In this document: positions 10,743-41,271 of the stretch, piece by piece | Position numbering within the stretch: position 1 is the stretch's first letter | How the letters are laid out: each line of letters opens with the position of its first letter | Source: an uncultured Candidatus Saccharibacteria bacterium | GTDB taxonomy: Bacteria; Patescibacteriota; Minisyncoccia; Phycocordibacterales; UBA12088 | Length of the DNA: 64,000 nt | Assembly: GCA_964562615.1 (NCBI GenBank) | Contig: CAZLUD010000001.1 | Location: 327,628-391,627, forward strand | Direction: 5' to 3' | Translations under genes and position numbers: made by a program | The notes under the pieces: generated by a model | Seen by the model: the letters and a program-made list of their open reading frames with translations, nothing else | Told to the model about the DNA's origin: nothing | Databases searched by the model: none

Positions 10743-10879
10743 TAATCCCCAGAGTTATCCACAGTTTTGACCTATTCTGTGTATTTCTTTTAGGCTGTTT
10801 CGGCACGAATTATACCGAGGATAGGCGCAATAATAGGATGAAAGAATAAAGCAAAATATATCCCTAATGCTCCCGCTCT

Positions 10880-11175
10880 CTCCTCTTATTTAGTGTGCGA
10901 CCTAATTTTGTTGAGCGACCAAAGAAATAAGGAGCAAAGCGACTATATTTCTTGAAGTACCCCTTGTGGCACGTAGCGATTACAAAATGGAAGTACTCTC
11001 TGTGGTGCGACCTAATTTTTACGACCGTAGGGAGATAAAAATGGAAGTACTCTTTGTGGTGCGACCTAATTTTGTTGAGCGACCAAAGAAATAAGGAGCA
11101 AAGCGACTATATTTCTTGAAGTACCCCTTGTGGCACGTAGCGATTACAAAATGGAAGTACTCTTTGTGGTGCGGG
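10880..11175. repeat. Tandem array of two ~115-bp units (approx. 10893-11009 and 11056-11172) separated by a truncated 54-bp unit. Each unit ends with the motif AAAATGGAAGTACTCT(C/T)TGTGGTGCG. The array begins with a duplicate of the tRNA-Gly(GCC) trailer (CTCCTCTTATTTAGTGTGCG).
   Basis: Direct repeats aligned by eye. This is not CRISPR-like: the units are long and the spacer is itself repeat-derived. Confidence 0.7.
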
Positions 11176-21517: not shown

Positions 21518-23017
21518 ATGGCGGTGGCTCGGGTAACAAGCGCCCAACCAAGCTACCCGCATGCGATTATTGTTGATGTTGAAACAGACCTCAGTAAAGG
21601 ACTCAACGCTTTTTCTATTGTTGGACTTCCTGATAAAGCGGTTGATGAGGCGAAAGATAGAGTATCGTCCGGAATAAAAAATTCGGGCTATCCCTCACCA
21701 AAAAGCACCAATCTTAAAACAGTGGTGTCCCTTGCTCCTGCTGATTTTAAAAAAGAGGGTACACACTACGACCTACCAATAGCCATTTCGTACCTCATTG
21801 CAAGCGGGGCAATTCCCGCTATTTCACGATCAATACTTATTGTTGGAGAGCTTACCCTTGATGGGAGCGTGCGGGGAGTGCGCGGAGTATTGTCATGTGC
21901 TATCGCAGCAAAAAAAGAAGGATTCGAGGCTATTTTTGTACCTCGTGCCAACGCAGAAGAGGCGTCGCTTGTTGATGGCATTTCAATCTACCCCGTAACC
22001 TCTCTTACAGAGATATTGTTACACCTTCGAAATGAGGCGATGATATCAGCGTACACCTCTTCAGGTGTGAGTGCGGAATCGCCCACCGCGCGTATAGATT
22101 TTTTTGATATTAGAGGACAAGAGAGTGCAAAGCGCGCGCTTGAAGTAGCAGCTGCAGGGAGACACAACATCGTACTCTATGGCCCACCGGGCACTGGTAA
22201 ATCAATGCTCGCGCAAGCATTCTGTGGTATTTTGCCGCCCCTTACCCACGAAGAAGCACTCGAAGCAACAATTATTCACTCACTTGCGGGAGTGTTACAT
22301 ACCACTCACATTGCTCAGCCTCCAATGAGAGCCCCGCACCATACAAGCTCACACATTGCTCTTGTTGGGGGCGGAAGCACTCCTCGCCCTGGAGAAATTA
22401 CCCTAGCACATCGAGGTGTGCTGTTTTTAGATGAGTTTCCAGAGTTTGAACGAAGGACTATAGACGCACTACGTGAGCCACTTGAAGGAGGAGAAATAAC
22501 CATCGCAAGAGCGAGAGGCGCGGTGAGGTATCCAGCAAACTTTATTCTTGTTGCGGCAATGAATCCAACAAGGGGTCATGATGGTATCGCAAATTTAAGC
22601 GAAAAGGAGCGTCTCCAAAAAAAGATATCGGGGCCAGTGGCTGACAGAATAGATATCTGGATAGAGGTGGGACACATTACTCACCACACCCTCTCTGATA
22701 TGCCACATGGTGAACGTTCTGCTGTTATACAAAAAAGAGTAGAGGGAGCGAGGGAGGTGCAGTACAAACGATTTGCCTCAAGCGGTAAAACTAATTCAGA
22801 AATGTCGGTGCGCGACCTGGATTCTTTTATCCATATGAGCCAGCACGCAAAAGAGGTGCTCAATCAATCGGCCACACGCCTTCAGCTTTCACCCCGAGCA
22901 TATCATCGAATTGTAAAGCTTTCTCGTACTATTGCCGATTTATCTAACAGCGATAGCGTAGAAGATACTCACGTACTTGAAGCTCTTCACTACAGACCTA
23001 AAAACTTATTTGATTAG
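21518..23017 (+). CDS. comM: YifB/ComM family Mg-chelatase-like AAA+ ATPase.
   Basis: Lon-like N-domain. Walker A (VLYGPPGTGKSML), Walker B (VLFLDEFPEF). 499 aa. Confidence 0.8.
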   Translation: MAVARVTSAQPSYPHAIIVDVETDLSKGLNAFSIVGLPDKAVDEAKDRVSSGIKNSGYPSPKSTNLKTVVSLAPADFKKEGTHYDLPIAISYLIASGAIPAISRSILIVGELTLDGSVRGVRGVLSCAIAAKKEGFEAIFVPRANAEEASLVDGISIYPVTSLTEILLHLRNEAMISAYTSSGVSAESPTARIDFFDIRGQESAKRALEVAAAGRHNIVLYGPPGTGKSMLAQAFCGILPPLTHEEALEATIIHSLAGVLHTTHIAQPPMRAPHHTSSHIALVGGGSTPRPGEITLAHRGVLFLDEFPEFERRTIDALREPLEGGEITIARARGAVRYPANFILVAAMNPTRGHDGIANLSEKERLQKKISGPVADRIDIWIEVGHITHHTLSDMPHGERSAVIQKRVEGAREVQYKRFASSGKTNSEMSVRDLDSFIHMSQHAKEVLNQSATRLQLSPRAYHRIVKLSRTIADLSNSDSVEDTHVLEALHYRPKNLFD

Positions 23018-24012
23018 AAAGGATTTTTAGCACCGCGAACCTCAAAGTGGAGGTGAGGACCAGTTGATCTACCGGTATTGCCCACGTATCCGATAACCTG
23101 CCCTTGTACTACTTGTTGCCCTGCATACACGATGTTTCCTGAGAGGTGAGCATAGAGTGTTTGTGTACCGTTTTGGTGTTCTACTACAATGTAGTTACCG
23201 TACCCACCATTCCATCCGCTTGTGCGTGAGACGAGTACCTTTCCACCTGCTGATGACCTAACCGAGGCGCCAACCCTCGCACCAAAGTCAATACCATTGT
23301 ATCCATGAATACCCTGTGTCTTAATCGCTCCTGGGACTGGGTGTATGAAATATCCTGAATATGAGCTTGCTTTTGAGCCACTTGAAGCATATGCAGGCTT
23401 TGGTGCCTCTATTTCTCCACCTGGAATTGTGAGGGTTTCACCTACAGAAATAGCTTCTGCTGATGCAAGGTGGTTGTATGAAATGATTTCCTCCTCATTT
23501 CCTTTGAATTTTTTGGCAATAGAGGCGAGGGTGTCGCCCTTTTTGACGGTATATTGAACACCATTGATTGGTAGAATGAGCAATTCTTGTCCCGACACAA
23601 TGGCACTACCCTTAGCAATATTGTTTGCCCACAAGATGGTATTAGGAGAAACACCAAACATTTGAGCAATCTGGGAGAGCGAATCTCCGTCCTTTACTAC
23701 ATAAAGAGAAATCTCTCCATTTCCTGATGTTTCTTCAATATTTGCCATTGAGCCAGCAGGTCCGGTCTCGGCGCGTAGCGCGCTGTCAGAAACCACAATA
23801 ATATCGCCACCTCCCTTTGAAGGATTGGGGTCAACATTATACGCCCCCTTTAGTAGGGGTAGGGTTTGTGAGCTGTATGCCTCATAGGTATCGTCTCCTG
23901 TCTGTCTTTCAGAAGAGAAAAATGAGGTCATTCGGGAAAGCATACTGCCCTCTACAGCCATAGGCATACTTATTAGACCTAAGATGGCAATGTATGTCCC
24001 GAAATATGTCAC
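23014..24012 (-). CDS. LysM-domain M23 family peptidoglycan endopeptidase.
   Basis: Two LysM repeats (YVVKDGDSLSQIAQMF, YTVKKGDTLASIAKKF). M23 motifs HxxxD-like and GPHLHFEV. Confidence 0.75.
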   Translation of the reverse strand: MTYFGTYIAILGLISMPMAVEGSMLSRMTSFFSSERQTGDDTYEAYSSQTLPLLKGAYNVDPNPSKGGGDIIVVSDSALRAETGPAGSMANIEETSGNGEISLYVVKDGDSLSQIAQMFGVSPNTILWANNIAKGSAIVSGQELLILPINGVQYTVKKGDTLASIAKKFKGNEEEIISYNHLASAEAISVGETLTIPGGEIEAPKPAYASSGSKASSYSGYFIHPVPGAIKTQGIHGYNGIDFGARVGASVRSSAGGKVLVSRTSGWNGGYGNYIVVEHQNGTQTLYAHLSGNIVYAGQQVVQGQVIGYVGNTGRSTGPHLHFEVRGAKNPF

Positions 24013-27052: not shown

Positions 27053-28090
27053 ATGAATGAATCCATACTTCCAAGTAAGCAGTTTATTATTACCGTGATT
27101 GTCATTACGGTACTACTCGGTGGTGGCATCGCGGTATTTTTGAGTACACGAGAATCAGCAAGTAAATTTTTTGCCGAATCAAACGAAAAAGAGATGCGAG
27201 AAATCGCAGAAAAGCTGGTTGCCTCTGACGAAGATGAAGATGGGCTTCTTGATTGGGAAGAATCTCTTTGGAAAACTGATGTAAAAAACCCTGACACTGA
27301 TAGCGACGGCACTTCAGATGGCGAAGAAATCCGCATCGGAAGGGATCCACTTAAACCAACTCCTGGTGATGAAATTACTGTTCAAAGTATTGAGGTATTT
27401 AGAGATACTGCGGTAACTGATGCGCAAATTAAAAACAGCAACCTAACCGCTGAATTTGCCAAAAACTTTTTTGTTGAATACGCAAAAACCAAAGAGGCAG
27501 GTTTACCAGTTGGGATCATGGGAGCAAGTATAGAAAAGGTAGAGAACTTGATTCCGCAAGACCAGTACGAGAATAGAGAGCCTCTTTTTACAGAAGAAGA
27601 TATTTTGATAGCGCCATCTGAAGATAATTACTCCCTACGCGAGTATGGAAATGCTGTTGGGCGTGCATTTGAAAATCACCCGGTTGTAGGGGAGAACATG
27701 CTTGATGTTCTCTATCGAGCGTTGCGTAGCGGAAATAAAGCTGAGCTCGACAAACTACGAGATGCTGCTTCTTCAGTAAGCCTGCTCGCTGAAGAGATTA
27801 TTTCGATTCGAGTCCCTGAACCTCTCGTAGAAAATCATCTTGATTTGCTTAATGCTCTAGCATTTTTTAATGAGATACTTGTCGCATTTGGCAATACATA
27901 CGAAGATCCGCTTGGTGCAACTATTGCAATGACCTACTACCCTAAGACCGCTAAAGAATTAGCAATTATCGGGATATCAACTGCAAAGTACCTTGAGTCG
28001 AGAAATATTGTATACACACGAAATGACCCTGGACATGTATTCAATGAACTACTTGTAATTTATAAGAGATCGCCGAATCTATTTATATGA
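27053..28090 (+). CDS. Hypothetical protein with an N-terminal transmembrane anchor and an acidic Asp-rich segment (DEDEDGLLDWEE...DTDSDGTSDGEE).
   Basis: Hydrophobic N-terminus. Ca-binding-like D-x-D repeats are possible. Confidence 0.35.
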   Translation: MNESILPSKQFIITVIVITVLLGGGIAVFLSTRESASKFFAESNEKEMREIAEKLVASDEDEDGLLDWEESLWKTDVKNPDTDSDGTSDGEEIRIGRDPLKPTPGDEITVQSIEVFRDTAVTDAQIKNSNLTAEFAKNFFVEYAKTKEAGLPVGIMGASIEKVENLIPQDQYENREPLFTEEDILIAPSEDNYSLREYGNAVGRAFENHPVVGENMLDVLYRALRSGNKAELDKLRDAASSVSLLAEEIISIRVPEPLVENHLDLLNALAFFNEILVAFGNTYEDPLGATIAMTYYPKTAKELAIIGISTAKYLESRNIVYTRNDPGHVFNELLVIYKRSPNLFI

Positions 28091-29808
28091 AATCAGTTGC
28101 TAGGGTAGTCACATCTCTTCTGACTCGCTACGTAGCGCCATCTACCATAATAATGGCGTTATTTGCTCCTTCAGTATTTGTTATTGCAACCCCACAAAAA
28201 ACTGAGGCTATTTTTGGATTTGGTGACACTGTAGTTGAGGTGGGTGCAAACCTATATACAAATGTTGCCAATACCGTGGAAGCAGTTTGGGCAACCCTCA
28301 AGGAAGCATCGCTTGATGGTATTGCGTGGTACCTCGCTAAGTTAGTAATACAACGAATGACCGTTGAGATTATCAACTGGATCAATAGAGATTTTGAGGG
28401 CTATCCACAATTTGTTAATAATCTTGGCGTATTTCTTACTGATGTAGTAGACCAAGCCACCGGGGCATTTATACGCGAAAACAATCTTGAGTATTTATGT
28501 AACCCACTGAGTATTCGTATTGCGCTGTTAACGTATCAATACCAACCCATTCAACAGAGGTATTCGTGTACGCTTTCTCAAGTGGTAAACAACGTAGACT
28601 CATTCATACAAGGAAACTTTGCGGAGGGAGGTTGGACGGGATGGTTTTCACACGCCACCATCCCTACCAATAACTTGCCTGGGCAATATCTTGTCATACA
28701 AGGAGAGCTTGTTAAGTACGCCAACAAAAAAGAAGAGAATCAAAAAAACTACCTTTCCTTTGGGCAAGGCATGTTCTCAGACCTTTCGTTTGAGTGGTGC
28801 CAATCAGTAGAAAATACTGAAGGGGTTCCAGATGGATCAGGGGGCGTTCGTTATCAAACCGGTATGACAAGAGATGATTGTCAAATAAAAACACCAGGTA
28901 AATTGATAACAGATCAACTAAGTTGGGTCACGACAAGCCCACTCAGACAACAAGAGCTTGCTGATGAACTAAACGAAGCGATTTCAGCAATCCTCAGTAC
29001 GCTCATGAGTAAATTGCTCTCTGATGGTCTTGCATACCTTACCTCAAGTGGTCTTGGAAGAGGTGCAGCTGGCTCTTCGTATGATGATCTTTTGCGAGAA
29101 GATATTGCACGCCAACAAGAGCGCGTAACAGAAGACATTATCCTTCAGATTGATCAACAAATTGAAGAGGAGCTTGCGCTTGGTAGAGAGCTTGGCTGTT
29201 ATGGCGAAGATCCTGGAGACGGTGATGGAGGGGGCGGGGGTGATGGAGGGGGAGGTGATATTGGTGGAAATGAATTTCACGATGTGCCTATTGGTGACCG
29301 ATCAATACTTCCTGATACCACCACATTCTCAAATATCAGATATACCCCAGCTGATTCATACGCAGCGTACCAAACATCAGGACTAGAACCTCTTACGCCA
29401 ACAGAGTACTATCAAGAACTCACCCTTGCAGGACTCATCGACAGTCCAACCAGCACTACCTGGAGTGAGAATTATACCCTTAGAGAGGTTGGTATCGACG
29501 AGGGCGCAATCATTATTGAGAGAACCGGCGAAGATGCATATCGAGTACTATATGACGCTGACGGAGACGATGTGCGAGAAGTTATCGCAACATCAAGAGA
29601 AGTAGAGGGTCAGTCTGGTACATACACCTTTACCCGCGTCACCGGAGAAGACCTTGGATTTCAAACGCTTGGGGTAAGAAGTAGTGTTGCGGCAGGAGCA
29701 GTAAATGAGGCCTTGAGAGAGTACTACCTAATTAACGAAAACCCTCCTCAAACAAAACTGGAGCCAGTTGGAGGTACAGGCTCAAATGGCACAACAGGGA
29801 ATCGTTAG
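28087..29808 (+). CDS. Hypothetical secreted or membrane-anchored protein (573 aa) with a Gly/Asp-rich linker (GDGDGGGGGDGGGGDIGG).
   Basis: N-terminal hydrophobic segment. Translationally coupled to the upstream gene. Confidence 0.35.
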   Translation: MKSVARVVTSLLTRYVAPSTIIMALFAPSVFVIATPQKTEAIFGFGDTVVEVGANLYTNVANTVEAVWATLKEASLDGIAWYLAKLVIQRMTVEIINWINRDFEGYPQFVNNLGVFLTDVVDQATGAFIRENNLEYLCNPLSIRIALLTYQYQPIQQRYSCTLSQVVNNVDSFIQGNFAEGGWTGWFSHATIPTNNLPGQYLVIQGELVKYANKKEENQKNYLSFGQGMFSDLSFEWCQSVENTEGVPDGSGGVRYQTGMTRDDCQIKTPGKLITDQLSWVTTSPLRQQELADELNEAISAILSTLMSKLLSDGLAYLTSSGLGRGAAGSSYDDLLREDIARQQERVTEDIILQIDQQIEEELALGRELGCYGEDPGDGDGGGGGDGGGGDIGGNEFHDVPIGDRSILPDTTTFSNIRYTPADSYAAYQTSGLEPLTPTEYYQELTLAGLIDSPTSTTWSENYTLREVGIDEGAIIIERTGEDAYRVLYDADGDDVREVIATSREVEGQSGTYTFTRVTGEDLGFQTLGVRSSVAAGAVNEALREYYLINENPPQTKLEPVGGTGSNGTTGNR

Positions 29809-29817
29809 AACAGCAAT

Positions 29818-31596
29818 ATGAATGCAACAAGATCAATCATAATTTCATCGCTTCTGATCATCAGTGCGTACGCATCTTCTGTTTGGATATATTCCCCAAA
29901 GCTCTCTGCTCAGACACCTCCTCAAGAACCAGTTACCTGTGAAGAAGTAGACACCACCATCGCACAGCTCACCGCCCTTCGAGCACGAGCAGAGGCAGCA
30001 GACACTCCAGAGGAGATGCAGGCAGTAGTGGATGAATTTAATAGACTAGAGACACATAATGGTAACGATTTGGTGGTAGCACAACAAGAAAATCAACTTG
30101 AAGATAGAAGAGCATATTTAATAAGTAGAATAGAGGACACAAAGGAGGTTGATGCAGCACAAGGTGGAAGAAATGCAGAAGAGCTTGATGAGCTACTTGC
30201 ACGAGCAGAGGCTGCAGATGACTTTACCGAGCTTGGACGAGTAGAAGGAGAGCTTGGTGAGATACGAGGGAGATTGGGGCTTAGCGGTGGAGGAAGTGGT
30301 GGGGGTGGGGGAGGAGGGGGAGGTGGAGTAATTGGTGGAGGAGGCGATGGATCATGGGCTGGAGGAGTGCTTGATGGCAGTGGCAAAAACAACAGAGCGC
30401 CCGTTCCTGCATTTACAAGAACAGTTGTGCTTGGGCCAGGAGATGATATACAAGGGGCAATTAATAGTGCTACCCCAGGCACTGACATCCAACTCAAAAG
30501 TGGTACGTACAATTACTCCAACCTAAGCATAAGCGGAAAGGGTGGAAATCCGAACGCATGGATACGGCTTGGCAATGCTCCTGGAGAACATCCTATTCTT
30601 AGGCCGACAGGAGGATATGCAACCCTAAACGTGGCAGGCGGTTCGAGCTATATTCTAATTGAGGGACTGGAAATAAATGGGAGTAGGGTGGGAACAACAC
30701 TTCCTGATGGGACATATATTGGATCATGGAATGATATGCTTGCCTACTCTAATAGGAGTTGCAGTAATATCGGATACCATTGCAATCAGGGTATAATGCT
30801 CGGTTGCGGAGGCTGTAATACCAATCAAGGGCACCACATTGTCGTTCGAGATAATGTTACCCACGACTTTGGAGGCTCTGGTATTAGCACCTTTGGTGTT
30901 GATTATGTGATTATTGAAGACAATGTTTCTTTCAATAATGGCAATTTCTCTCGTTATGGGGAGAGTGGTATATCTGCTGGATTTCCAGCACTGGTAGGGG
31001 GAGGAAGCATGAGTGACTACGGCTTTATTGTAAGGAGAAACACCACCTACGATAATAAGCAATACTTGGGGTCAATAGACTGTGGTTGTGGCCCAGGTAT
31101 TACCGATGGTAACGGCATAATTCTTGACGGTATGGATCATAATGGTGCATACAGAAGAGTTCTTGTTGAGAGTAATCTTTCGTACAACAATGGTGTTGAG
31201 GTGCCTGGGCAGGGTGTGCATGGGTCAGGAATGCATTCAGTCGATTCTTCTAATGCAGAGTTCATAAATAACACCGCGTATGGTAATGCAGCTGCGCAGA
31301 TATTTGCATGTTGCGCCTCAAACAACAATAAGTTTTACAACAACATAGCAATAGGCAATAGGCCGTTGTTTGCTGCCCACGGTGTCCCTTTTACTGGAGG
31401 ATGTAACATATCGAGTGGTTCTGAAAATGTACCTACTACTGTTACTGACCCAATGTTTGTAAACCCTAGCGCTGGAGACTTTAGCTTGCGGGCGGGATCT
31501 CCGGCAATAAACGCCGCATGCGGACAAACCGCATCAAGCGACCTTAATGGAGCCCTCGCAAATGGGGCAAAAGATATCGGTGCTATAGAAATGTAG
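29818..31596 (+). CDS. Secreted protein with signal peptide, shared coiled-coil N-module, Gly-rich linker (GGGSGGGGGGGGG) and a C-terminal right-handed parallel beta-helix domain (pectate-lyase/polysaccharide-lyase-like repeats).
   Basis: Recurrent N-x-G/NNG-type beta-helix coil motifs (VRDNVTHDFGGSGIST, IEDNVSFNNGNFSRYGESGISAG, VESNLSYNNGVEVPG, INNTAYGNAAAQ). Confidence 0.5.
   Translation: MNATRSIIISSLLIISAYASSVWIYSPKLSAQTPPQEPVTCEEVDTTIAQLTALRARAEAADTPEEMQAVVDEFNRLETHNGNDLVVAQQENQLEDRRAYLISRIEDTKEVDAAQGGRNAEELDELLARAEAADDFTELGRVEGELGEIRGRLGLSGGGSGGGGGGGGGGVIGGGGDGSWAGGVLDGSGKNNRAPVPAFTRTVVLGPGDDIQGAINSATPGTDIQLKSGTYNYSNLSISGKGGNPNAWIRLGNAPGEHPILRPTGGYATLNVAGGSSYILIEGLEINGSRVGTTLPDGTYIGSWNDMLAYSNRSCSNIGYHCNQGIMLGCGGCNTNQGHHIVVRDNVTHDFGGSGISTFGVDYVIIEDNVSFNNGNFSRYGESGISAGFPALVGGGSMSDYGFIVRRNTTYDNKQYLGSIDCGCGPGITDGNGIILDGMDHNGAYRRVLVESNLSYNNGVEVPGQGVHGSGMHSVDSSNAEFINNTAYGNAAAQIFACCASNNNKFYNNIAIGNRPLFAAHGVPFTGGCNISSGSENVPTTVTDPMFVNPSAGDFSLRAGSPAINAACGQTASSDLNGALANGAKDIGAIEM
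29954..30320 (+). repeat. Copy 1 of a 367-bp near-identical intragenomic repeat encoding the shared N-terminal module. It pairs with 31741-32107.
   Basis: Nucleotide alignment by eye; only a handful of mismatches. Confidence 0.85.
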
Positions 31597-31607
31597 ATTG
31601 TTGCTTC

Positions 31608-33065
31608 ATGAAAAACGCAATCAGTATAAGTAGTTTTGTATCACTCGTAGTGATCGCGCTATCGTGCGTGAGCATCATTCCAACAAGAAGTAGTGCGCAA
31701 ACACCACCGCAAGAACCGATTACTTGCCAAGAAGTTTCTTCCACCATCGCACAACTCACCGCCCTTCGAGCACGAGCAGAGGCAGCAGACACTCCAGAGG
31801 AGATGCAGGCAGTAGTGGATGAATTTAATAGACTAGAGACACATAATGGTAACGATTTGGTGGTAGCACAACAAGAAAATCAACTTGAAGATAGAAGAGC
31901 ATATTTAATAAGTAGAATAGAGGACACAAAGGAGGTTGATGCAGCACAAGGTGGAAGAAATGCAGAAGAGCTTGATGAGCTACTTGCACGAGCAGAGGCT
32001 GCAGATGACTTTACCGAGCTTGGACGAGTAGAAGGAGAGCTTGGTGAGATACGAGGGAGATTAGGGCTTAGTGGTGGAGGAAGTGGTGGGGGTGGGGGAG
32101 GAGGGGGCACAGTAGGTGGAGGAGGCGGGGGCACCACCACACCAGGAACAGGGGTGGGCTCAGGTACCGCTGCGGGTACACCAACAGACACTGGCTTTGC
32201 TCCAGCAGGGTATACACTTGCGTGGAATGATGAATTCAATTCTCTTAGCTTAGGAAGTGGTTCAGCGTTTAGATGGACGCCATTTGATACGCTTGCTGCA
32301 AATGCTGGATATGATGCAAAAGGAAGAATACTTGCAAGTAACAGCTCTGATGCTATATGGGTTGCTGATTACGAAACAAATGCAGGTGGGACACGAACGT
32401 ATGGTGACGCATTTAAGGCAGCCGGCACCTACGGTGAGGGGCCATTCTTCCATGAGGTAAGTGATGGCGCACTTGCTATGCGTGCGTATCCAGTACCAAG
32501 CTCAGTACGCAACGAATTTATTGCGTATGGATGGCCGCAGGGTGCTCCATACGCCGCAGGTGGAATATTTGGATCACTCTCACATACCCAAACATACGGC
32601 TACTATGAAGTGCGGCTGCGTGTAAATTCAATAACAAGAGGCCAACATTTTGCGCTTTGGCTACTCCAAGACGACCTTGCATGGCCTCCTGAGATAGACA
32701 TGCTTGAGGTTATTGGTGAAAATCCTCAGTTTTATCACACTACCGTACACGGCGAAGGGCCAAATGGCTCTGACCCAACCACCTCATTTAAGCTGCTTCC
32801 AGCAGGAGGGAGCGGGACATGGCACACCTACGGATTTTTGTGGACACCTGAAAGTATGCGATTTTTTGTCGATGGAAAGGAGTATTTCTTAAGAGAAAAT
32901 TATGGGGAAGGGGCAGAAATAGGAACATTACCTAACTTTGTAAACAAGCCAATGTACCTCCTTGCAACCTGGGAAATGGCAAGCTATTGGCCAGGAGATC
33001 CTGATGCAACTACCGTGTGGCCAGCAGAGGTTGAGCTTGATTACGTCCGCATCTACAAACCATAG
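31608..33065 (+). CDS. Secreted protein: the same N-module plus Gly-rich linker as 29818-31596, fused to a glycoside hydrolase family 16-like (beta-glucanase/laminarinase-type) domain.
   Basis: GH16-like motifs WNDEFN and catalytic E-I-D-M-L-E (PPEIDMLEVIGE). Confidence 0.55.
   Translation: MKNAISISSFVSLVVIALSCVSIIPTRSSAQTPPQEPITCQEVSSTIAQLTALRARAEAADTPEEMQAVVDEFNRLETHNGNDLVVAQQENQLEDRRAYLISRIEDTKEVDAAQGGRNAEELDELLARAEAADDFTELGRVEGELGEIRGRLGLSGGGSGGGGGGGGTVGGGGGGTTTPGTGVGSGTAAGTPTDTGFAPAGYTLAWNDEFNSLSLGSGSAFRWTPFDTLAANAGYDAKGRILASNSSDAIWVADYETNAGGTRTYGDAFKAAGTYGEGPFFHEVSDGALAMRAYPVPSSVRNEFIAYGWPQGAPYAAGGIFGSLSHTQTYGYYEVRLRVNSITRGQHFALWLLQDDLAWPPEIDMLEVIGENPQFYHTTVHGEGPNGSDPTTSFKLLPAGGSGTWHTYGFLWTPESMRFFVDGKEYFLRENYGEGAEIGTLPNFVNKPMYLLATWEMASYWPGDPDATTVWPAEVELDYVRIYKP
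31741..32107 (+). repeat. Copy 2 of the 367-bp near-identical repeat (pairs with 29954-30320).
   Basis: Nucleotide alignment by eye. Confidence 0.85.
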
Positions 33066-33131
33066 CGGCGGTACCGACCACACAACAAGAAACTGTGGAG
33101 TAATCTATGCTTCACACGCTAACATGGTGGT

Positions 33132-35558
33132 ATGATAGGTGTATCGCTGTGCATCTTGCACTGTTATATGGCTGCATCACCATTACATAATTTGTATACT
33201 CGCATAAAAAACTTGGTGGTATGTGGATTTGCTGAGCATAAACGCATACTCGCTATCTCGCTTGTGGTAGTGGTGACGCTACTTTTTAGTGCTACTCCAT
33301 ACGCAACACACGCTGCCAATTTGTGGGAAATTATAACCACACCACAGCTTATGTTTGCGTGGGTTGGCTCAGGAGTGTTGTGGCTCATGAGCGGTATCTT
33401 GGGTATTACGGCAATCCTCCTCAATATCACAATTTTGCAAACCGTAACCGGGATGGGAAATCACATCAACGACATAATAGGTATACAAATTGCCTGGGCA
33501 CTACTACGTGATATGGCAAATATATTGTTTATCTTTGGCATTGTATACATAGGCTTGAATCTTATTCTTGGCAACAATAGACACGGGCATCAGCAAGCAC
33601 TTGCACGACTTGTGATTATCGCGCTCGTCATTAACTTTAGTCTCTTTATAACAAAAACCGTAGTCGAGACATCGAATGTAATGGCGAACACGATATTTAG
33701 ACTCATTATTCCTCCGGGCACAACTGGGAGTCAAGCGTGTGATGGAAGAAGCACGCTTCCAGAAAACGTAATACAATGCGTAAATTTTGGTATTACAGGA
33801 ATTATTAATAACTCCCTTGGTCTTACTACGGTATTTAACGTTGGGGGTACTGCAAACTCAGCTGGATTTACCTCTCCAACACTTAACAGCGCTACAGCAA
33901 TTGATGCGTCTAAAATCTTCTACATAACAGCACTCGGTTCAATATTTATTCTCATTACTGCGTTTGTCTTTGCGTCCGCTGCCGTGTTGTTGGTTATTAG
34001 ATTTGTCATACTGATTATACTCATGGTGTTTTCACCGCTTGCGTTTGCGGCGTGGATACTGCCTTCAACGAGTGGTTACTTTTCTTATTGGTTAAAATCA
34101 CTTCTCAATCAATCGTTTTTTGCGCCTGCCTACATGCTTATGATGTGGATCGCAATAAAAATAATCGAGGGGTATGGTGTCTCTACGGTTACTGGTGTTG
34201 CCACACGATCAAACAATTTTGGCGCAGCGCTCTTGGGCGCAAATGTTAGCTTTGCAAACGTATTCTTAAACTTTGCCATTATCACCGTATTTATGGTGGC
34301 AGCGCTTGTAGTTGCAAAGAAACTTGGCGCCATTGGCGCTGATAAGGCATACGGCATTGGTAAGGGATGGGTCAACACCGCACAGTCAACCGCGTATAAG
34401 TACAAGAGCACAATTGCGGCTGGAGCAGCGGGTGCAACTGTATTTCCTGCGCTTGTTGGAGGGGGGGCACTCCTTGGCGCAGCGGCTGGTGTTGCTGGGT
34501 GGAAGGGAACGAGAGTTGGCACGAAGGTAATTGCTGACGAGAGTGCAAGGTTTGCCGGCAGAAAGGTAAACGCGATAAATGAAAGATTGATGAAGGCCCC
34601 AGTAAAAGAAGGTGGTGTTAAAGACACAATAAGAAAAGCGACAATTGGACGATTAGACAATGCACTAGGCTACAGCCAAACAGTGGCAGCTGATGTGAAG
34701 TCAGCACAAGAGAAAGTAAAAGCCCTTTCTAGAGATGGAAATACAAAGGGATCATCTGATTTCCTTCTCGCACAACGTGAAGACGTAAGAAATACGCTAT
34801 TTGCAGGACTATCACCATCTGAACAAATTACTGTGGGGGCAGAGATGGGTAAGAATGTAGTGACTCGAGACGGACTGGTTGATAAGAAAGCTACGGATAA
34901 AAATATCAAGAAAAAAGCCGTCGCACTCTCAAGCCTACGTGAAAGCGCAAGAGAAAAATACCTTGAAGCCATGACAAAGGATTTTGCAAACGACTCAAAA
35001 GAGTTGTACAAACAAATCTCAACGCTTAATGGTGATGATCTAACCTACGCATACTCAAAAATGACTCCACGCATCAGAGCGGCGTACGAAACAGAACTTA
35101 ACAAGGCGACTGGAAATGATACTCGCACAAAATCTCTTAGAAAGACAATATCAATTGAGGATCAAGAAAAAACAGAGAAAGAAGCAGGTGAAGTAAAAGC
35201 TCGTACAGAGAAAAAATCAAGATCTGGAGACCTTATCACCTTGATACAGCAACATCAAACACTCTCTACAACACCAACAACCTCAAATCCATCTTCACCT
35301 ACCGGCACAGAGATTGATAATAAAATCCGTAACATTATTAGAGTAATGGGCGACAAAGAAGTAACGGATCTAAAACCAGATGTGTTGAAGAGTAAAGAAT
35401 TTGCAAAGCATGTAACAGTAGGAATGCTCTCTAAAATTGCTGCGGTAGACAATATCACGCAAGAGACCAAACAAACACTTAGAGATAATGTTATGAGTGT
35501 AAACAATACAAAAGGAATCAGTTGGCTACAAGACAAAGGTAAAGATTTATTCCAATAA
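33132..35558 (+). CDS. Polytopic membrane protein, VirB6/TrbL-like component of a type IV secretion system. It has a long hydrophilic C-terminal tail. The start is probably downstream of 33132.
   Basis: Six or more transmembrane segments in the first ~400 aa; Gly-rich intramembrane stretches. It is in a cluster with a VirB4 ATPase and PrgI-like proteins. Confidence 0.45.
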   Translation: MIGVSLCILHCYMAASPLHNLYTRIKNLVVCGFAEHKRILAISLVVVVTLLFSATPYATHAANLWEIITTPQLMFAWVGSGVLWLMSGILGITAILLNITILQTVTGMGNHINDIIGIQIAWALLRDMANILFIFGIVYIGLNLILGNNRHGHQQALARLVIIALVINFSLFITKTVVETSNVMANTIFRLIIPPGTTGSQACDGRSTLPENVIQCVNFGITGIINNSLGLTTVFNVGGTANSAGFTSPTLNSATAIDASKIFYITALGSIFILITAFVFASAAVLLVIRFVILIILMVFSPLAFAAWILPSTSGYFSYWLKSLLNQSFFAPAYMLMMWIAIKIIEGYGVSTVTGVATRSNNFGAALLGANVSFANVFLNFAIITVFMVAALVVAKKLGAIGADKAYGIGKGWVNTAQSTAYKYKSTIAAGAAGATVFPALVGGGALLGAAAGVAGWKGTRVGTKVIADESARFAGRKVNAINERLMKAPVKEGGVKDTIRKATIGRLDNALGYSQTVAADVKSAQEKVKALSRDGNTKGSSDFLLAQREDVRNTLFAGLSPSEQITVGAEMGKNVVTRDGLVDKKATDKNIKKKAVALSSLRESAREKYLEAMTKDFANDSKELYKQISTLNGDDLTYAYSKMTPRIRAAYETELNKATGNDTRTKSLRKTISIEDQEKTEKEAGEVKARTEKKSRSGDLITLIQQHQTLSTTPTTSNPSSPTGTEIDNKIRNIIRVMGDKEVTDLKPDVLKSKEFAKHVTVGMLSKIAAVDNITQETKQTLRDNVMSVNNTKGISWLQDKGKDLFQ

Positions 35559-35570
35559 ATACTAATTGCC

Positions 35571-36167
35571 ATGGATGAACTAGAACTAAAGTTTAAAGAG
35601 CACTTTGATCGACTACCAGAGGTTGTGCAAGAGTATGTGCTTCATGGTAATTACTCATCTGAAATAGCGTCCATAGGGCATCTATTCAAATTTCACATTG
35701 ATACGATGGGGCAACTTTCCGATTTTGTCACCTATGTCTTGGTTGGTATTATACCCACCCACGAAGCAGAGAAGAAATTTACTGAGTTCTTACCTGAGTA
35801 TTCAGCTCAAACAAAAGCAATCTTACAAGAAATTGAGCGCCGAATCTTGAGTAGTGTACGCACCATGACCACAATTAAATCTGATTCGACTGCTCCCATT
35901 GAACAGGTGACGGCACCGAGTGCTATTTCCAATCTCCCTACAACACCAGCACAACAAGCACAGACTGTGCCAATAAACACCGCACAAGTACCTGTTGCTG
36001 TTTCGCCACAAAAATTACCAATGGTTACACCAGCCACTCCACCAACAAGTCAAACAGCACCGAACCAAAATGCTTCTACACCAATGAAAACGGTAGGGAA
36101 GGAGATAGTTATTCCAGACACTGCACCGAAAAAATCAACGGATCCCTATCGAGAGCCAGTTGACTAA
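35571..36167 (+). CDS. Hypothetical protein with a Pro/Thr/Gln-rich C-terminus, associated with the T4SS cluster.
   Basis: ORF, tightly spaced within the cluster. Confidence 0.35.
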   Translation: MDELELKFKEHFDRLPEVVQEYVLHGNYSSEIASIGHLFKFHIDTMGQLSDFVTYVLVGIIPTHEAEKKFTEFLPEYSAQTKAILQEIERRILSSVRTMTTIKSDSTAPIEQVTAPSAISNLPTTPAQQAQTVPINTAQVPVAVSPQKLPMVTPATPPTSQTAPNQNASTPMKTVGKEIVIPDTAPKKSTDPYREPVD

Positions 36168-36197
36168 ATAATGTTTTCATGGTATAAATAATATAGT

Positions 36198-37523
36198 GTG
36201 CTCTTTGACAGAGCGCTTTCTAAACACTTAACTGGAGGTCATCCGATGACGAACAGTGTACTGGATCTGGTCTCGATTATCCTATTTCCACACACGTTTG
36301 CGCTTTTTGTGGGTCTGTTTTCGGTGCTATACGCACCATTTACCATTAACTCAGCAAAAAATCCTGCGAGATTTCTCTCCATGTTCACACGTGTCTCTCC
36401 AAACCAACTCAAAATTATTGAGTGGGGTGGAACATTTGTGAGGGTTATTTGTGTCAACCCTGGGTACGCCTTCAGAGCGTGGGTTGATAGTGGTGGTAAC
36501 ATGTTGCCTTCAAAAAACAACTTACATGAATGGGAGGTGGTTGAAAGACCTCCAACCTGCCCTCCAATGCCAGAAGTTGTGCCTGGAAGTATATTTTCTG
36601 GGCGCTACACGAAATGGCTTTCTCCGCTCTTTGTGTTTAGACTGGTATCCTACAAGATAACAGGTCTTCACTTTTATGGCATCGCGCCATATGTGCAGGT
36701 CAGATCACAAGACTACAAGCGCGGAAAGGTGCCTGACTCTGGTGAAATATCACTAGAGACCGTAACACAGGTTGTAGATGAGACCGATCATTTTAGACTA
36801 AGTGCGTTTACAAACCTCACCGTATCGGGAAAGCTCCCAACACAGCAGGGGTGGGGGGTGTCTGTACTTGTTGCGCTTGAGCTGTCAATTACCGACGCTC
36901 CGAGCGCTGCCTATTCGGTGAATAGGTGGGACCAAAACATACAGCAACGCGTTGTTGCTGCCATTGCTGAAGCGATGCATGGAGCAAACATCGGTTCGGT
37001 ATATGGAGGTGGTGATATCTCTCACAAGAACGCCATCGTGGATAAGTGTTGGTTCTTCTTGACGGGGCTTGATACTAACGCACGAGCCACCAATGCCAGA
37101 TACTTCCGTACTGTTGCTGATTTGGGAAGCATCAACGTGCACAACATTCGAGTTGTGGATATGAATGCTGATCAGCATTCACAAGAAGCGGTGGAGCAAG
37201 CACTCTCTGCTGCCTTTGTTGGGACCCAGGAAGGAAACAAGATCAAGAACAAACTTACCCTTGAAGGAGAAGGTAGGCAGGCTTTCCTGAGTAACCAAAT
37301 TAGCGGCGTAAGCGAGAGCCTAACCGACCAAGAAAAAATGAGGTTGGCCATACGCATCATTGAGGGGGAGGCACTTCGAAACGCAGTGATAGATGGAGGC
37401 GCGAAGGTAATAGCCACGTTTGGTAACCAGCAGCAAGAACCAGGCGCTCCGCTTTCGTTGCCTCAATTTATTGCGGCAACGAAAGAAGATTCTCAGCAGA
37501 ACACGGAAGGAGACCGTCAATGA
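36198..37523 (+). CDS. Hypothetical membrane-anchored protein (441 aa), associated with the T4SS cluster.
   Basis: N-terminal transmembrane segment (LVSIILFPHTFALFVGLFSVLYAPF). Its stop overlaps the next gene. Confidence 0.35.
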   Translation: MLFDRALSKHLTGGHPMTNSVLDLVSIILFPHTFALFVGLFSVLYAPFTINSAKNPARFLSMFTRVSPNQLKIIEWGGTFVRVICVNPGYAFRAWVDSGGNMLPSKNNLHEWEVVERPPTCPPMPEVVPGSIFSGRYTKWLSPLFVFRLVSYKITGLHFYGIAPYVQVRSQDYKRGKVPDSGEISLETVTQVVDETDHFRLSAFTNLTVSGKLPTQQGWGVSVLVALELSITDAPSAAYSVNRWDQNIQQRVVAAIAEAMHGANIGSVYGGGDISHKNAIVDKCWFFLTGLDTNARATNARYFRTVADLGSINVHNIRVVDMNADQHSQEAVEQALSAAFVGTQEGNKIKNKLTLEGEGRQAFLSNQISGVSESLTDQEKMRLAIRIIEGEALRNAVIDGGAKVIATFGNQQQEPGAPLSLPQFIAATKEDSQQNTEGDRQ

Positions 37524-38206
37524 CACAAGAGGGAGGTGGGTGGACGCTGGATATACTTCCCATAATACCAGCATCAATAGAGATAGCTGTAATACTAGCT
37601 ATCCTTTTCACCCTTCTGGTGGTAATCATTTCTGTTTTCAAATCGGAATCCTCAGGAGCAGCGCCCTCAACCACTAAACGTATCTCGCTTAGTGGGAGTC
37701 TTATACCACTTGGGGGGGTAATCCTGATCGGTGTCACCATTCTTGTGGTAGCACTGTACTGGCCATCACAAACCCCATTCCTCGCATTGGTGTTGCCAAT
37801 ACTCTGGCACTACACCGCCTCAAGGACAAAAGCTGAGGCGCATTTTTGGGGGATCACGTGGAGGGATGGTGAACAATACCTTTCCTCGTACTTGATGCTC
37901 CAATTTATGTTCCAAATGCTGTTCCTTGTAGGGGTTATTTTACTCCTACTATTGTGGGGGCCTTGGTTCCTTGCTAAGGCACTCCAAGGATCCGCGCTCT
38001 ATATAATTCTTGGTGTTGGTATAATTTTTACCACCTGGTTCTTTGAGAGCTGGGGCAAATTTACCAGGATGATGCTATATGCATTTGGTGGAGGCGTCAC
38101 CCTATTATGGTTGTTTGGCAGAAAACTTGCTGCCCAAAATGATTTCGCCACCATAGAGTTGTGGCGAAATAACATACTCGAGCTAGATAAGCTATTTTAT
38201 CTCTAG
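37520..38206 (+). CDS. Polytopic membrane protein (about 6 transmembrane segments), associated with the T4SS cluster.
   Basis: Hydrophobicity; ATGA overlap with the upstream gene. Confidence 0.4.
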   Translation: MTQEGGGWTLDILPIIPASIEIAVILAILFTLLVVIISVFKSESSGAAPSTTKRISLSGSLIPLGGVILIGVTILVVALYWPSQTPFLALVLPILWHYTASRTKAEAHFWGITWRDGEQYLSSYLMLQFMFQMLFLVGVILLLLLWGPWFLAKALQGSALYIILGVGIIFTTWFFESWGKFTRMMLYAFGGGVTLLWLFGRKLAAQNDFATIELWRNNILELDKLFYL

Positions 38207-38280
38207 CTCGAAGAGGCTTGAAGCCGTGATGCAATATCATCACGGCTTCTTTTATTTGTGATACACAGTCAAAAGCAGAG

Positions 38281-38784
38281 TTGCCAACAATTATTTATAT
38301 AAATGACTTAGCTATAGGTTGTATTCGAGGTACAATATACTCACATACCCCTATGCGTTATCACGTACCACAATTTATTGATATCGAAGATAAAGTGGTT
38401 GGACCACTTACCATAAAACAGTTTGTGTACATCGCGGGAGGTGTAGGGTTTGTTGCACTTCTTACCGCATTTATGCCGTGGCAGTGGGCTGCTATTGTGG
38501 GTAGTCCGCTTGTACTCCTTGGATTACTCCTTGCCTTCTATCAAGTAAACAATCAACCTTTTATCGCAATAATGGAAGCGGCATTTTATTACCTTGTGAG
38601 TAAAAAACTCTATCTTTGGAAAAAGAATACTGGGGTAAAAGATGAAGCAAAAGAAATGGTAGGGAAGGAAGCGCTCGTGCATACTCCCTATGTGCCAAAA
38701 GTCTCTAATAATAGACTTAAAGAGCTTGCGTGGTCACTAGACATAAAAGATAAAACTGGTGGTTCAACACTAAATCAATCGTAG
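38281..38784 (+). CDS. PrgI/TcpE/VirB3-like small membrane protein of Gram-positive-type T4SS.
   Basis: Motif GPLTIKQFVYIAGGVG followed by two transmembrane helices. It lies immediately upstream of the VirB4-like ATPase. Confidence 0.45.
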   Translation: MPTIIYINDLAIGCIRGTIYSHTPMRYHVPQFIDIEDKVVGPLTIKQFVYIAGGVGFVALLTAFMPWQWAAIVGSPLVLLGLLLAFYQVNNQPFIAIMEAAFYYLVSKKLYLWKKNTGVKDEAKEMVGKEALVHTPYVPKVSNNRLKELAWSLDIKDKTGGSTLNQS

Positions 38785-38785
38785 T

Positions 38786-39430
38786 ATGAAAGAAGTTAAT
38801 AAAAAATCAGGCGCATCACAAGCATTTGTACCCATCGAGGAGGTGCGAGATGGAATTGTCATACTTAAAGACGGCTCATTGCGCGGAGTGTTTATGGCGT
38901 CATCGACCAACCTCGCCCTAAAGGGGCAAGACGAGCAACAAGCTATCCTCACCCAGTTTGGACAATTCCTTGATTCGCTTGATTTTTCAGTGCAATTTTT
39001 TGTGCAATCACGAAAACTTGATATTCGCCCCTATGTCGCCATGCTTGAAGCGCGCTATGTTGAACAAACAGAAGAGCTCATGAAAATACAGGTACGTGAG
39101 TATGTAGATTTCATAAAAACATTTACCGAGGGTGCCAATATCATGACAAAAAGCTTCTTTGTGGTAGTGCCATACGCACCAGCAATTATTGGTAGCGCAT
39201 CATCAATAAATCCTTTTGCAAAAAAAGACGAAAGTGGTGAAGCGTCCAATGCCACCTTTGAAGAGAGCAGGTCACAACTTGAGCAGCGCATGGGCATCGT
39301 ACAACAGGGGTTGCTACGATCTGGAGTACGGGTCGCACAACTCGGAACCGAAGAGGTGATAGAATTGTTTTACAAGATGTTTAACATGGGTGAACTAGAG
39401 CGCCCTATCCCTCTTGATAACAGAGCATAG
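38786..39430 (+). CDS. T4SS-associated hypothetical protein (214 aa) whose N-terminus resembles the N-terminal region of VirB4-family proteins (VPIEEVRDGIVILKDGSLRGV).
   Basis: Motif similarity by recollection only. Its stop (TAG at 39428-39430) lies 5 nt before the VirB4 start. Confidence 0.35.
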   Translation: MKEVNKKSGASQAFVPIEEVRDGIVILKDGSLRGVFMASSTNLALKGQDEQQAILTQFGQFLDSLDFSVQFFVQSRKLDIRPYVAMLEARYVEQTEELMKIQVREYVDFIKTFTEGANIMTKSFFVVVPYAPAIIGSASSINPFAKKDESGEASNATFEESRSQLEQRMGIVQQGLLRSGVRVAQLGTEEVIELFYKMFNMGELERPIPLDNRA

Positions 39431-39435: not shown

Positions 39436-41271
39436 ATGGGACTATTTGATATCTTTAACAAAAAAGGCGACAAAGAGTCGATGGAGGATTACCACATCCA
39501 GCCCGTACTTCCTGCAGAGATGTTTGAAGTTGGCTCTCTTGAGCTTAAAGATGTTATCGCACCATCTGCGCTAGAGATTACCCCCAAAGAAATGAACTTG
39601 GGTGACAAAGTAGTCCGAACATTTTTTGTTATTTCGTACCCGAGCTTTCTCTCTGATAACTGGTTTTCTCCAATTATCAATCTCGATAAAGTGTTTGATG
39701 TCTCAATCTTTGTTCATCCTATAGACACCGCCTCGGTACTTAAAAAGTTTCAAAAAAAGGTAGCAGAGGTACAAAGCCAGATTCAACTACGCGAAGAAAA
39801 AGGACTTGTCCGCGACCCAAAACTAGATAGTGCATATCAAAACCTCGAGGAACTCCGTGATAAATTGCAACAAGCACAGGAGCGTCTGTTTGATGTTGGT
39901 TTGTATATCTCTATATACGGAGACAGTAGGGAGGAGCTTGATAAAATTGAATCAGAGATAAAATCAATTCTAGAAGCGCAGTTGGTCTATTTAAAGCCCG
40001 CACTCTTTCAACAGGAGCAGGGGTGGAAGAGTGTCATACCTATTTCTACCGACTTACTTAGTGTGCATTCAAAACTAAACTCTCAACCACTTTCAAGCTT
40101 TTTTCCTTTTATTTCTTTTGATCTCTCTGCAGATACCGGTATCCTCTATGGTATCAACCGCCACAACTCATCTTTGGTGTTGTTTGACCGATTCTCAATG
40201 GAAAACTACAACTCTGTGGTATTTGCAAAATCTGGTTCTGGAAAGTCCTACACCATAAAGCTAGAGATTTTGCGTTCACTCATGTTTGATACAGACATCA
40301 TTGTTATCGACCCAGAACGTGAGTATGAATATATCGCTGAAGCAACTGGCGGGCGTCACTTTAACATTTCACTTTCATCAGGTCACCATATCAATCCGTT
40401 TGATCTTCCTATACCCCGAGAGGACGAGTCTCCTTCAAACGTTCTTCGATCACACGTGGTATCGCTGGTGGGATTGTTTCGTATTATGCTCGGCGGGCTT
40501 TCTCCAGAAGAAGACTCAATTATAGACAGGGCAATAACCGAGACCTACGCACTAAAAGACATCACCGGTGAACATGACTTTTCAAGCATGAACCCACCGC
40601 TTCTCTCTGATTTTGAACTAGTACTTGCTGGTATGGATGGAAGTGAATCACTTGTACAACGACTCACCAAGTACACCAAGGGTACGTGGGCAGGATTTAT
40701 TAACCGTCCTACCAATGTTGATATCAACAAACGATTCGTGGTGTTTTCAGTACGTGACATGGAAGACGAGCTGAAGACTGCCGCGATGTACATCATCACT
40801 AACTTTATTTGGGCAACCATACGCAAAGAGCTCAAAAAGAGGCTCTTGGTGGTAGATGAGGCGTGGTGGATGATGAAATCAGAAGACACCGCATCATTTC
40901 TCTATGGTATTGCAAAGCGAGGACGAAAATACTATCTAGGTTTGGCAACCATCACTCAAGACGTTGATGACTTTTTGAAAAGCCCATATGGCGTACCGAT
41001 GATCACCAACTCATCTATACAATTACTCCTTAAACAATCTCCAACCTCAATAGGAACAATCCAGCAGGTATTTAACCTTACCGATGAAGAGAAATATCTT
41101 CTTCTTGAATCTAATGTGGGGGAGGGGATATTCTTTGCTGGCATGAAGCACGTAGCGATAAAGATAATTGCTTCGTACACCGAGGATCAGATTATTACCT
41201 CTGATCCGTCACAGCTCCTCTCTATAAAGAAAGCACGCGATGAAAAAAAGGCGTCTGTTGATACGGTATAA
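39436..41271 (+). CDS. virB4: VirB4/TrbE/CagE-family type IV secretion ATPase.
   Basis: Walker A (VVFAKSGSGKSYTIK), Walker B (LLVVDEAWWMM). The N-terminal block APSALEI...RTFFVISYPSFLSDNWFSPIINLDKVFDVSIFVHPID is typical of Gram-positive VirB4 homologues. Confidence 0.8.
   Translation: MGLFDIFNKKGDKESMEDYHIQPVLPAEMFEVGSLELKDVIAPSALEITPKEMNLGDKVVRTFFVISYPSFLSDNWFSPIINLDKVFDVSIFVHPIDTASVLKKFQKKVAEVQSQIQLREEKGLVRDPKLDSAYQNLEELRDKLQQAQERLFDVGLYISIYGDSREELDKIESEIKSILEAQLVYLKPALFQQEQGWKSVIPISTDLLSVHSKLNSQPLSSFFPFISFDLSADTGILYGINRHNSSLVLFDRFSMENYNSVVFAKSGSGKSYTIKLEILRSLMFDTDIIVIDPEREYEYIAEATGGRHFNISLSSGHHINPFDLPIPREDESPSNVLRSHVVSLVGLFRIMLGGLSPEEDSIIDRAITETYALKDITGEHDFSSMNPPLLSDFELVLAGMDGSESLVQRLTKYTKGTWAGFINRPTNVDINKRFVVFSVRDMEDELKTAAMYIITNFIWATIRKELKKRLLVVDEAWWMMKSEDTASFLYGIAKRGRKYYLGLATITQDVDDFLKSPYGVPMITNSSIQLLLKQSPTSIGTIQQVFNLTDEEKYLLLESNVGEGIFFAGMKHVAIKIIASYTEDQIITSDPSQLLSIKKARDEKKASVDTV

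Follow-up and report, generated by a model that had tools for sequence, protein, structure and literature searches.

Why should two neighbouring genes for enzymes of different kinds carry almost the same DNA over one short segment? The question arises in a 64,000-nucleotide (nt) stretch from an uncultured Candidatus Saccharibacteria (TM7) bacterium (assembly GCA_964562615.1, contig CAZLUD010000001.1, positions 327,628 to 391,627; hereafter the window), in which two genes, here called A and B, lie adjacent and in tandem with a gap of 11 nt. An original prediction made from the letters alone had described a 367-nt near-identity confined to the N-terminal coding parts of the pair, and had attributed it to recent gene conversion or cassette shuffling. 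A repeat search, a MAFFT alignment and an ungapped comparison confirmed the near-identity: all three agree on 364 matching bases out of 367 at an offset of 1787, with differences at 29967, 30276 and 30285 and perfect identity over the 308 bases from 29968 to 30275. The three differences are all synonymous, because the translated A and B proteins are identical across the tract. Identity falls to about 75% in the 47 nt upstream (29907-29953) and to about 30%, the random level, further out on both sides; chance cannot explain the identity of the tract. Scanning all six frames of the window by hmmsearch with a profile of the encoded module returned exactly two copies, those of A and B.

Concerted evolution of the module-coding segment

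A and B each encode a predicted signal peptide, an N-terminal module (N-module), a Gly-rich linker and a carbohydrate-active domain (Table 1). The same A-B pair is present in L003 (GCA_964409035.1), a different species with about 81% nt identity to the window. The two module copies of L003 share 391 perfect bases at the same 1787-nt offset; the 5' boundary of the tract is the same in both species, and both retain the paralogue-specific residues just upstream of it (EEVDTT in A, QEVSST in B). Between the window and L003 the module is 83.6% identical; among 111 codons, 36 differ synonymously and 13 non-synonymously. Because the copies of one genome are 99-100% identical while those of different genomes have diverged, the segment must have been converted repeatedly, and we conclude that the A/B module is under concerted evolution by repeated gene conversion in two species. 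The predicted recent conversion is thereby upheld. Exchange between the copies is also seen in the JGI sample 3300043411, where a private single-nucleotide polymorphism (SNP) that is absent from the window occurs in both the A-linked and the B-linked copy (on two contigs), and where the G/A site at 29967 is swapped between the A and B copies relative to the window.

More distant relatives place this process in time. L001, whose A protein is 73% identical to that of the window, has two tandem module genes with diverged modules, and the tandem modules of L048/L049 are only about 30-40% alike. Since tandem modules have diverged in these distant relatives, the array is old and its homogenisation recent and lineage-specific. 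The ratio of non-synonymous to synonymous substitution rates (dN/dS) was at most 0.083 in every A/B segment with an estimable dS, pointing to purifying selection; dS was saturated for the signal peptide and the catalytic domain of A. The catalytic domain of A is the fastest-evolving and most divergent part between species (dN 0.146 vs 0.028 for that of B). The A orthologue of L003 is 82% identical, and four B orthologues are at least 90% identical.

The window is a single metagenome-derived assembly, and near-perfect repeats can be artefacts of assembly or polishing, in which case the duplicated segment would not be present twice in the genome. We give this explanation next to no weight. L003, a SPAdes NODE contig from an independently assembled species, has its own species-specific perfect repeat in the same two genes; a further contig, L044, independently joins the 3' end of A to the signal peptide and module of B; A and B are each an intact reading frame under purifying selection; and L001 has two tandem module-bearing genes with diverged modules. 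We therefore rejected assembly duplication, which the original prediction had named as a possible source of the repeat, on account of the L003 tandem pair with its own repeat sequence.

Intrachromosomal gene conversion is well known from tufA/tufB in Salmonella and from the opa and pil loci of Neisseria. As in these cases, the A and B copies are closer within a genome (99-100%) than between species (84%), with homogenised synonymous sites, sharp tract edges and strain-level exchange between copies. Unlike tufA/tufB and the opa and pil loci, A and B are converted only in one domain-coding segment of about 370-390 nt; outside it they have unrelated signal peptides and catalytic domains, and the end of the tract falls in low-complexity linker DNA made of GGN repeats. 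The locus is thus a clean natural example of domain-restricted gene conversion, and its repeats may also drive deletion and allele exchange.

We propose the following mechanism. In this genus, intrachromosomal gene conversion repeatedly homogenises the module-coding segment, in a tract that extends from just past the conserved Cys codon into the GGN-rich linker DNA. The same direct repeats would be substrates for deletion and for the exchange of alleles, so that the slot between the genes for a 573-aa and an 808-aa protein, in which A and B lie, would come to hold different numbers and kinds of catalytic domains in each lineage.

Structural variants of the locus match such events in form. L002, L004 and L005 each have, directly after the 573-aa gene, a single in-frame chimera that consists of the 5' end and signal peptide of A, the module and the GH16 domain; L004 and L005 are 99% identical to the window. 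L002 (gene at 9426-10892) and L003 (8211-11464) are 100% identical over about 14 kb save for two differences: the 1.4 kb between the repeats is missing from L002, and eight SNPs form a patch in the module. This patch reads AEAADDFTE in L002 and AETANNITE in L003; at the amino-acid level the L002 version agrees with the window, in different codons. The chimeric gene is the expected product both of a recombinational deletion between direct repeats and of the collapse of an assembly-graph loop. L044 (JGI 3300043411, positions 1-1245), in which the 3' end of A leads into the 5' end of B, coexists with the chimeric L004. Its A part is about 75% identical to the window and 87% to L003, turning 100% identical to the window from about 26 nt before the A stop codon (window position ~31570); the contig stops 44 nt past the last of its private SNPs, as a graph merge would predict. 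Either L044 is a recombinant A allele, with allelic replacement of the catalytic domain, or it is a chimeric contig.

These variants bear on a tentative alternative, which we find possible without placing it first: the identical modules would be kept as portable homology arms through which recombination switches the enzyme repertoire. Deletion, duplication, allele replacement or DNA acquired by competence would then alter the depolymerase that is expressed from the promoter and signal peptide of A, and would diversify substrate or host range within populations. In its favour, the in-frame chimera occurs in three independent assemblies from two species, L002 equals the tandem L003 over 14 kb except for the deletion and the eight-SNP patch, in L044 an A allele of 75% identity to the window adjoins a B 5' end that matches the window at 100%, and the content of the slot differs among lineages. 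Logan contigs are simplified unitigs with k=31, in which each 31-mer is unique, made without scaffolding (PMC12424806); a Logan contig that runs through the repeat thus argues that alternative branches are absent or rare in the sample. On the other hand, in an assembly graph a tandem repeat becomes a loop, whose collapse gives exactly this chimera, and the JGI sample holds both the chimera L004 and the junction contig L044, the latter ending as at a graph merge and possibly chimeric itself, which would fit collapse or a mixed population. Moreover, a deletion is irreversible without an external donor.

An undescribed N-terminal module joined to different enzymes

Both N-termini have a basic n-region, a hydrophobic stretch and a small-x-small site (LSA followed by Q in A, SSA followed by Q in B), and an A-x-A-type site is conserved across the alignment of the module family. 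We read both as cleavable Sec signal peptides, a prediction made by eye. The N-module that follows is about 120 aa long. Its AlphaFold2 (AF2) model has five helices with a mean predicted local distance difference test (pLDDT) score of 82.6, and the model of the whole A protein places helices at residues 41-152; the linker of A is modelled with a pLDDT of 25-28. Within the family, residues C, L, R, F, L and A of the module are invariant and an ETHNG motif is present in most members. The Cys could take part in a disulfide. The linkers of A and B are encoded by GGN repeats, and the same kind of repeat occurs in the linker DNA of the upstream 573-aa gene (29212-29275).

We found no Pfam family matching the N-module, and a Foldseek comparison of its model with the PDB gave no specific or significant fold match (best E value 0.54). 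Homologues were absent from the IMG/VR viral contigs searched, so a phage origin of the module is unsupported. We searched 1.84 billion protein representatives exhaustively with a HMMER profile. The module occurs in just 10 clusters at 50% identity (E values from 1e-66 to 8e-5) and is always N-terminal, at residues ~30-190. Its partners are GH16, a GH5 cellulase, a Pel9A-like beta-helix, a chondroitinase-B-like beta-helix (five clusters) and an RGL11-like domain; one cluster is a short protein without a recognisable partner domain. The N-module is thus an undescribed, recurrent N-terminal domain family that is absent from curated libraries, and the suggested family of enzymes with a common N-module is real, with five carbohydrate-active partner types. 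A search with a three-sequence module alignment matched only the L003 genome among 185,579 species representatives. A word-indexed search with an 11-sequence module alignment gave no match, which reflects a limit of the index and not absence. For this Gly-rich family, word-indexed homologue searches are unreliable as negatives: the A orthologue of L003, represented in the 90% clustering by a 288-aa fragment (P0056), was not returned. A collection of metagenome contigs searched with the catalytic domain of A gave no match, but a positive control with the GH16 domain of B also missed the known JGI contig; the collection thus lacks that sample, and its negative carries no weight. Our literature search found no paper linking Saccharibacteria with arrays of GH16 enzymes or lyases, and none under the sample and assembly accessions.

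The GH5 cellulase-like N-module gene lies between fusA (EF-G) and tuf (EF-Tu) in the str/S10 ribosomal cluster (L046:10001-11722 and L047:7539-9260, in the high-GC (58%) genomes GCA_026004575.1 and GCA_003694545.1), which is an unusual position for a secreted enzyme, and probably a highly expressed one.

Beyond the linkers A and B carry different carbohydrate-active domains, as predicted. For B, Pfam PF00722 matches with an E value of 2e-20 (73.4 bits against a cut-off of 22), and the expected ExDxxE motif is present as EIDMLE, in which, among 21 aligned sequences, D364 is invariant and E362 and E367 are nearly so. A profile of B and its homologues matches solved laminarinases such as 3azx and 2hyk at an E value of 3e-69. 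B thus resembles GH16 laminarinases, solved ones among them, in sequence profile and motif, and these sequence matches confirm its assignment as a laminarinase-like GH16 enzyme. The closest relatives of B form a distinct GH16 subgroup with an insertion.

In the AF2 model of A, the C-terminal ~400 aa form a right-handed parallel beta-helix of repeated short strands (residues ~200-560). Foldseek gave the PL9 pectate lyase Pel9A (1ru4) as the best solved match and best superposition (E value 1.9e-11, template modelling score 0.59 on the target), followed by PL6 and PL9 lyases, alginate epimerases, GH136 and phage tailspikes. Unlike a true Pel9A, A shares only 16% sequence identity with it, and a profile of A and its homologues matches GH136, PL6, PL9 and GH120 beta-helices in the PDB about equally well. 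Our hmmscan of Pfam gave A just a sub-threshold match to PF13229 (18-21 bits against a cut-off of 25.9), while a precomputed annotation lists PF22842, Pel9A-like_beta_helix. We regard the beta-helix fold of the model, and with it the predicted polysaccharide-lyase-like domain, as secure; in its chemistry the domain may be either a lyase or a hydrolase.

Table 1. Positions of the A/B gene pair, its parts and neighbouring features in the window.
Feature	Positions	Strand	Description	Evidence
Upstream operon partners (345-aa and 573-aa proteins)	27053-29808	+	Genes overlap or lie 9-11 nt apart; the 573-aa gene is the left slot edge	
Gene A	29818-31596	+	592 aa; predicted secreted modular enzyme: signal peptide, N-module, poly-Gly linker, right-handed beta-helix	Open reading frame listing, AF2, Foldseek
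Predicted Sec signal peptide of A	29818-29910	+	Residues 1-31, cleavage after LSA; diverged from that of B	Read from the sequence by eye
N-module of A	29911-30282	+	Residues 32-155; invariant Cys (C41), then five-helix domain	Profile match, E value 2e-44
Gene-conversion tract, copy 1	29954-30320	+	367 nt, 3 synonymous differences from copy 2	
Poly-Gly linker of A	30283-30345	+	SGGGSG10VIGGGG; contains the 3' end of the conversion tract	
Beta-helix domain of A	30403-31593	+	Putative catalytic domain (lyase/hydrolase-like)	AF2 model, Foldseek
Gene B	31608-33065	+	485 aa; predicted secreted modular enzyme: signal peptide, same N-module, Gly/Thr-rich linker, GH16	Open reading frame listing, PF00722
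Gene-conversion tract, copy 2	31741-32107	+	367 nt	
GH16 catalytic motif EIDMLE of B	32691-32708	+	Residues 362-367: E362, D364, E367	
808-aa polytopic membrane protein	33132-35558	+	Right slot edge; long charged C-terminal tail; directly 3' of N-module genes in L003, L045, L048 and L050	
Terminator-like hairpin	38220-38249	+	12-bp stem, then T-run; only strong site on the + strand in the cluster	Consensus scan
PrgI/VirB3-like gene	38281-38784	+		Pfam
TraC-like gene	38786-39430	+		Pfam
VirB4/TraG P-loop ATPase gene	39436-41271	+		Pfam
Type IV secretion system pilin gene	42813-43298	+		Pfam

A conserved slot upstream of type IV secretion-like genes

The window is chromosomal. Its gene order is PNPase, ComM, an M23/LysM peptidase, UvrD, KsgA, the 345-aa and 573-aa proteins, A, B, the 808-aa protein and further uncharacterised genes, followed by PrgI/VirB3-like, TraC-like, VirB4-like and pilin genes of a type IV secretion system (T4SS) and by DnaA. 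The T4SS-like genes also have precomputed annotation matches in L003. In six lineages, the module genes have a homologue of the 573-aa protein on one side and one of the 808-aa protein on the other, upstream of the PrgI/VirB4/pilin genes, which extends to relatives the predicted position upstream of a T4SS-like cluster. Homologues of the upstream operon partners flank the slot in L001, L002, L003, L048 and L050, and the 808-aa protein is kept as the right border in every relative examined. The C-terminal cassettes at this locus vary among lineages in number and kind: the slot holds two module genes in the window and in L003, at least two in L001, one in L050, at least one in L045, and in L048/L049 three plus one with a degenerate module. 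The last is the first gene of the four-gene array (L048:996-2303) and encodes a 435-aa beta-helix protein in which the Cys and the first helix are still present, although its score does not reach the profile threshold; its N-terminus looks like a decaying or shortened module.

Among the slot borders, the 573-aa protein (28087-29808) has an N-terminal hydrophobic segment, a charged helical stretch and a Gly/Asp-rich linker, and its relatives align mainly over residues ~70-370. The 808-aa, 573-aa, 345-aa and other cluster proteins had no Pfam match at relaxed thresholds (for the 808-aa protein, even at E <=5). By its position and topology only, the 808-aa protein may be a VirB6-like component. 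Gene spacing is tight and no strong terminator lies 5' of 38220; the sequence weakly suggests that A and B are co-transcribed with the genes at 27053-38206. The terminator-like hairpin further suggests two transcription units, a block from the 345-aa to a 228-aa gene that includes A and B, and the PrgI/VirB4/pilin genes.

The T4SS-like genes stop about 2 kb short of dnaA (47071-48453), in agreement with published T4SS clusters near the replication origin in the candidate phyla radiation (CPR). The T4SS of Saccharibacteria is related to monoderm conjugation systems and often lies beside dnaA; it is conserved, S. epibionticum requires it for epibiotic growth, and published work calls its function completely unknown (10.1101/2025.01.22.634366; PMC11665869).

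A CPR survey of such systems considered that other, non-canonical glycosidases might fill the role of VirB1 (10.1101/2025.01.22.634366). A and B resemble cell-wall hydrolases of the VirB1/PrgK/TraG type in being predicted secreted glycan-cleaving enzymes encoded with T4SS genes. Unlike those hydrolases, their GH16 and beta-helix lyase-like domains would not be expected to cut peptidoglycan, and the enzyme content of the slot varies between close relatives; Pfam detected no SLT, CHAP or lysozyme domain in A or B. The only peptidoglycan-directed enzyme seen nearby is the M23 peptidase with LysM repeats (23014-24012, minus strand), which L002 and L003 share with the window.

A conserved N-terminus with variable C-termini beside T4SS-like genes also raises the reading that the module routes variable effectors through the T4SS into a host cell, in the manner of a polymorphic toxin. 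Like Rhs, CdiA and LXG/T7SS proteins, the A/B family combines a conserved N-terminal region with variable C-terminal domains in tandem arrays, and to this extent the likeness to polymorphic effectors drawn in the original prediction stands as an analogy of architecture. Its toxin part does not: unlike those proteins, A and B lack toxin domains and immunity genes, the window contains no orphan cassettes, and export of A and B would be by Sec. All identified C-termini are carbohydrate-active folds, and the gaps between A and B (11 nt) and between B and the 808-aa gene (66 nt) hold no small immunity-like genes. Known T4SS substrates usually carry C-terminal signals, and a Pfam scan of the cluster genes gave no match to a coupling protein or relaxase. 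Because the Sec-type signal peptides would direct export before any T4SS step and both toxin domains and immunity genes are missing, delivery of a toxin by the T4SS is very improbable, and we rejected this candidate.

A candidate tether for interchangeable glycan depolymerases

What, then, might the shared module do? The explanation that we favour, with moderate confidence, is that A and B are Sec-exported modular enzymes with a module in concerted evolution, encoded in a conserved slot, and that the module serves as tether or dock for interchangeable depolymerases. We infer a common tethering or docking role, in which the N-module would hold interchangeable glycan depolymerases at the cell surface and its partner would possibly be a component of the T4SS-associated operon. 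The substrates of the enzymes would be extracellular glycans, whether from the host envelope or from environmental polysaccharides. Homogenisation would keep both enzymes compatible with one partner, or would be a neutral effect of their proximity.

Several known systems share parts of this design. Dockerin-bearing and SLH-anchored enzymes likewise join many catalytic domains to one non-catalytic module by a flexible linker, and their dockerin and SLH modules place them on the cell surface. Unlike these, the A/B module is N-terminal and all-helical with a single invariant Cys, and no scaffoldin-like partner was identified; dockerin, cohesin and SLH matches were absent from the Pfam results for A, B, their neighbours and ten family representatives.

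Phage tailspikes and capsule depolymerases combine a conserved N-terminal anchor with exchangeable C-terminal beta-helix enzymes. The A/B family resembles them in its conserved N-terminal module and variable glycan-degrading domains, several of which are right-handed beta-helices; tailspikes also appear among the structural matches to the model of A, and in both, recombination within the conserved part may exchange the enzymes. Unlike tailspikes, A and B are chromosomal genes of a cellular epibiont, have predicted Sec signal peptides and belong to a family whose partners include the GH16 and GH5 folds. The anchor of tailspikes has a putative counterpart in the A/B module. Close relatives differ in their catalytic domains, which is reminiscent of phage depolymerases and would be in keeping with glycans of the host surface as targets. 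In its boldest form this likeness leads to a reading that we consider unlikely: the N-module would dock swappable depolymerases on the T4SS-like apparatus, its pilus or another operon product, forming a tailspike-like kit for breaching host glycans, with the slot as a determinant of host range and gene conversion preserving compatibility with one docking partner.

Several points weigh against the favoured explanation. Any partner of the module is hypothetical, and signal-peptide cleavage was read by eye. A lies under every Pfam gathering threshold in hmmscan. The partner domains (pectate-lyase-like, rhamnogalacturonan-lyase-like, cellulase and laminarinase) fit scavenging of plant or algal polysaccharides as well as attack on a host envelope. 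The location of the GH5 member between fusA and tuf, away from any T4SS gene, shows that the family need not be linked to the T4SS operon.

Some of these observations feed another account, which is doubtful in our view but deserves weight: the module would be a mere spacer or oligomerisation stalk, the enzymes would digest environmental polysaccharides for fermentation with no tie to the T4SS, and the near-identity would be neutral. The partners are indeed classic biomass-degrading types (GH5 cellulase, laminarinase-like GH16, and pectate-, rhamnogalacturonan- and PL6-like beta-helices), the GH5 member resides in the ribosomal str operon away from the T4SS, the fold of the module is a generic helical bundle, and Patescibacteria are thought to ferment the products of their many glycoside hydrolases (PMC11665869). 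Against a mere spacer, the module is no low-complexity sequence but a folded, conserved domain in which C, L, R and F are invariant and ETHNG occurs in most members, a separate Gly-rich linker already gives spacing, and the module genes occupy the same slot, inside an operon leading to PrgI/VirB4/pilin, in six lineages. If the enzymes only scavenge nutrients, the locus is a tidy but ordinary case of modular carbohydrate-active enzymes.

The genetics of the A/B pair is textbook concerted evolution, and the module that it homogenises is itself undescribed. The locus adds to an essential T4SS an accessory layer of variable, predicted secreted glycan-cutting enzymes that share one such concerted N-terminal domain. 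If the module docks or tethers as we favour, it would provide a handle for finding what the enzymes attach to, and would help to explain how ultrasmall epibionts handle the surface polysaccharides of their hosts or food.

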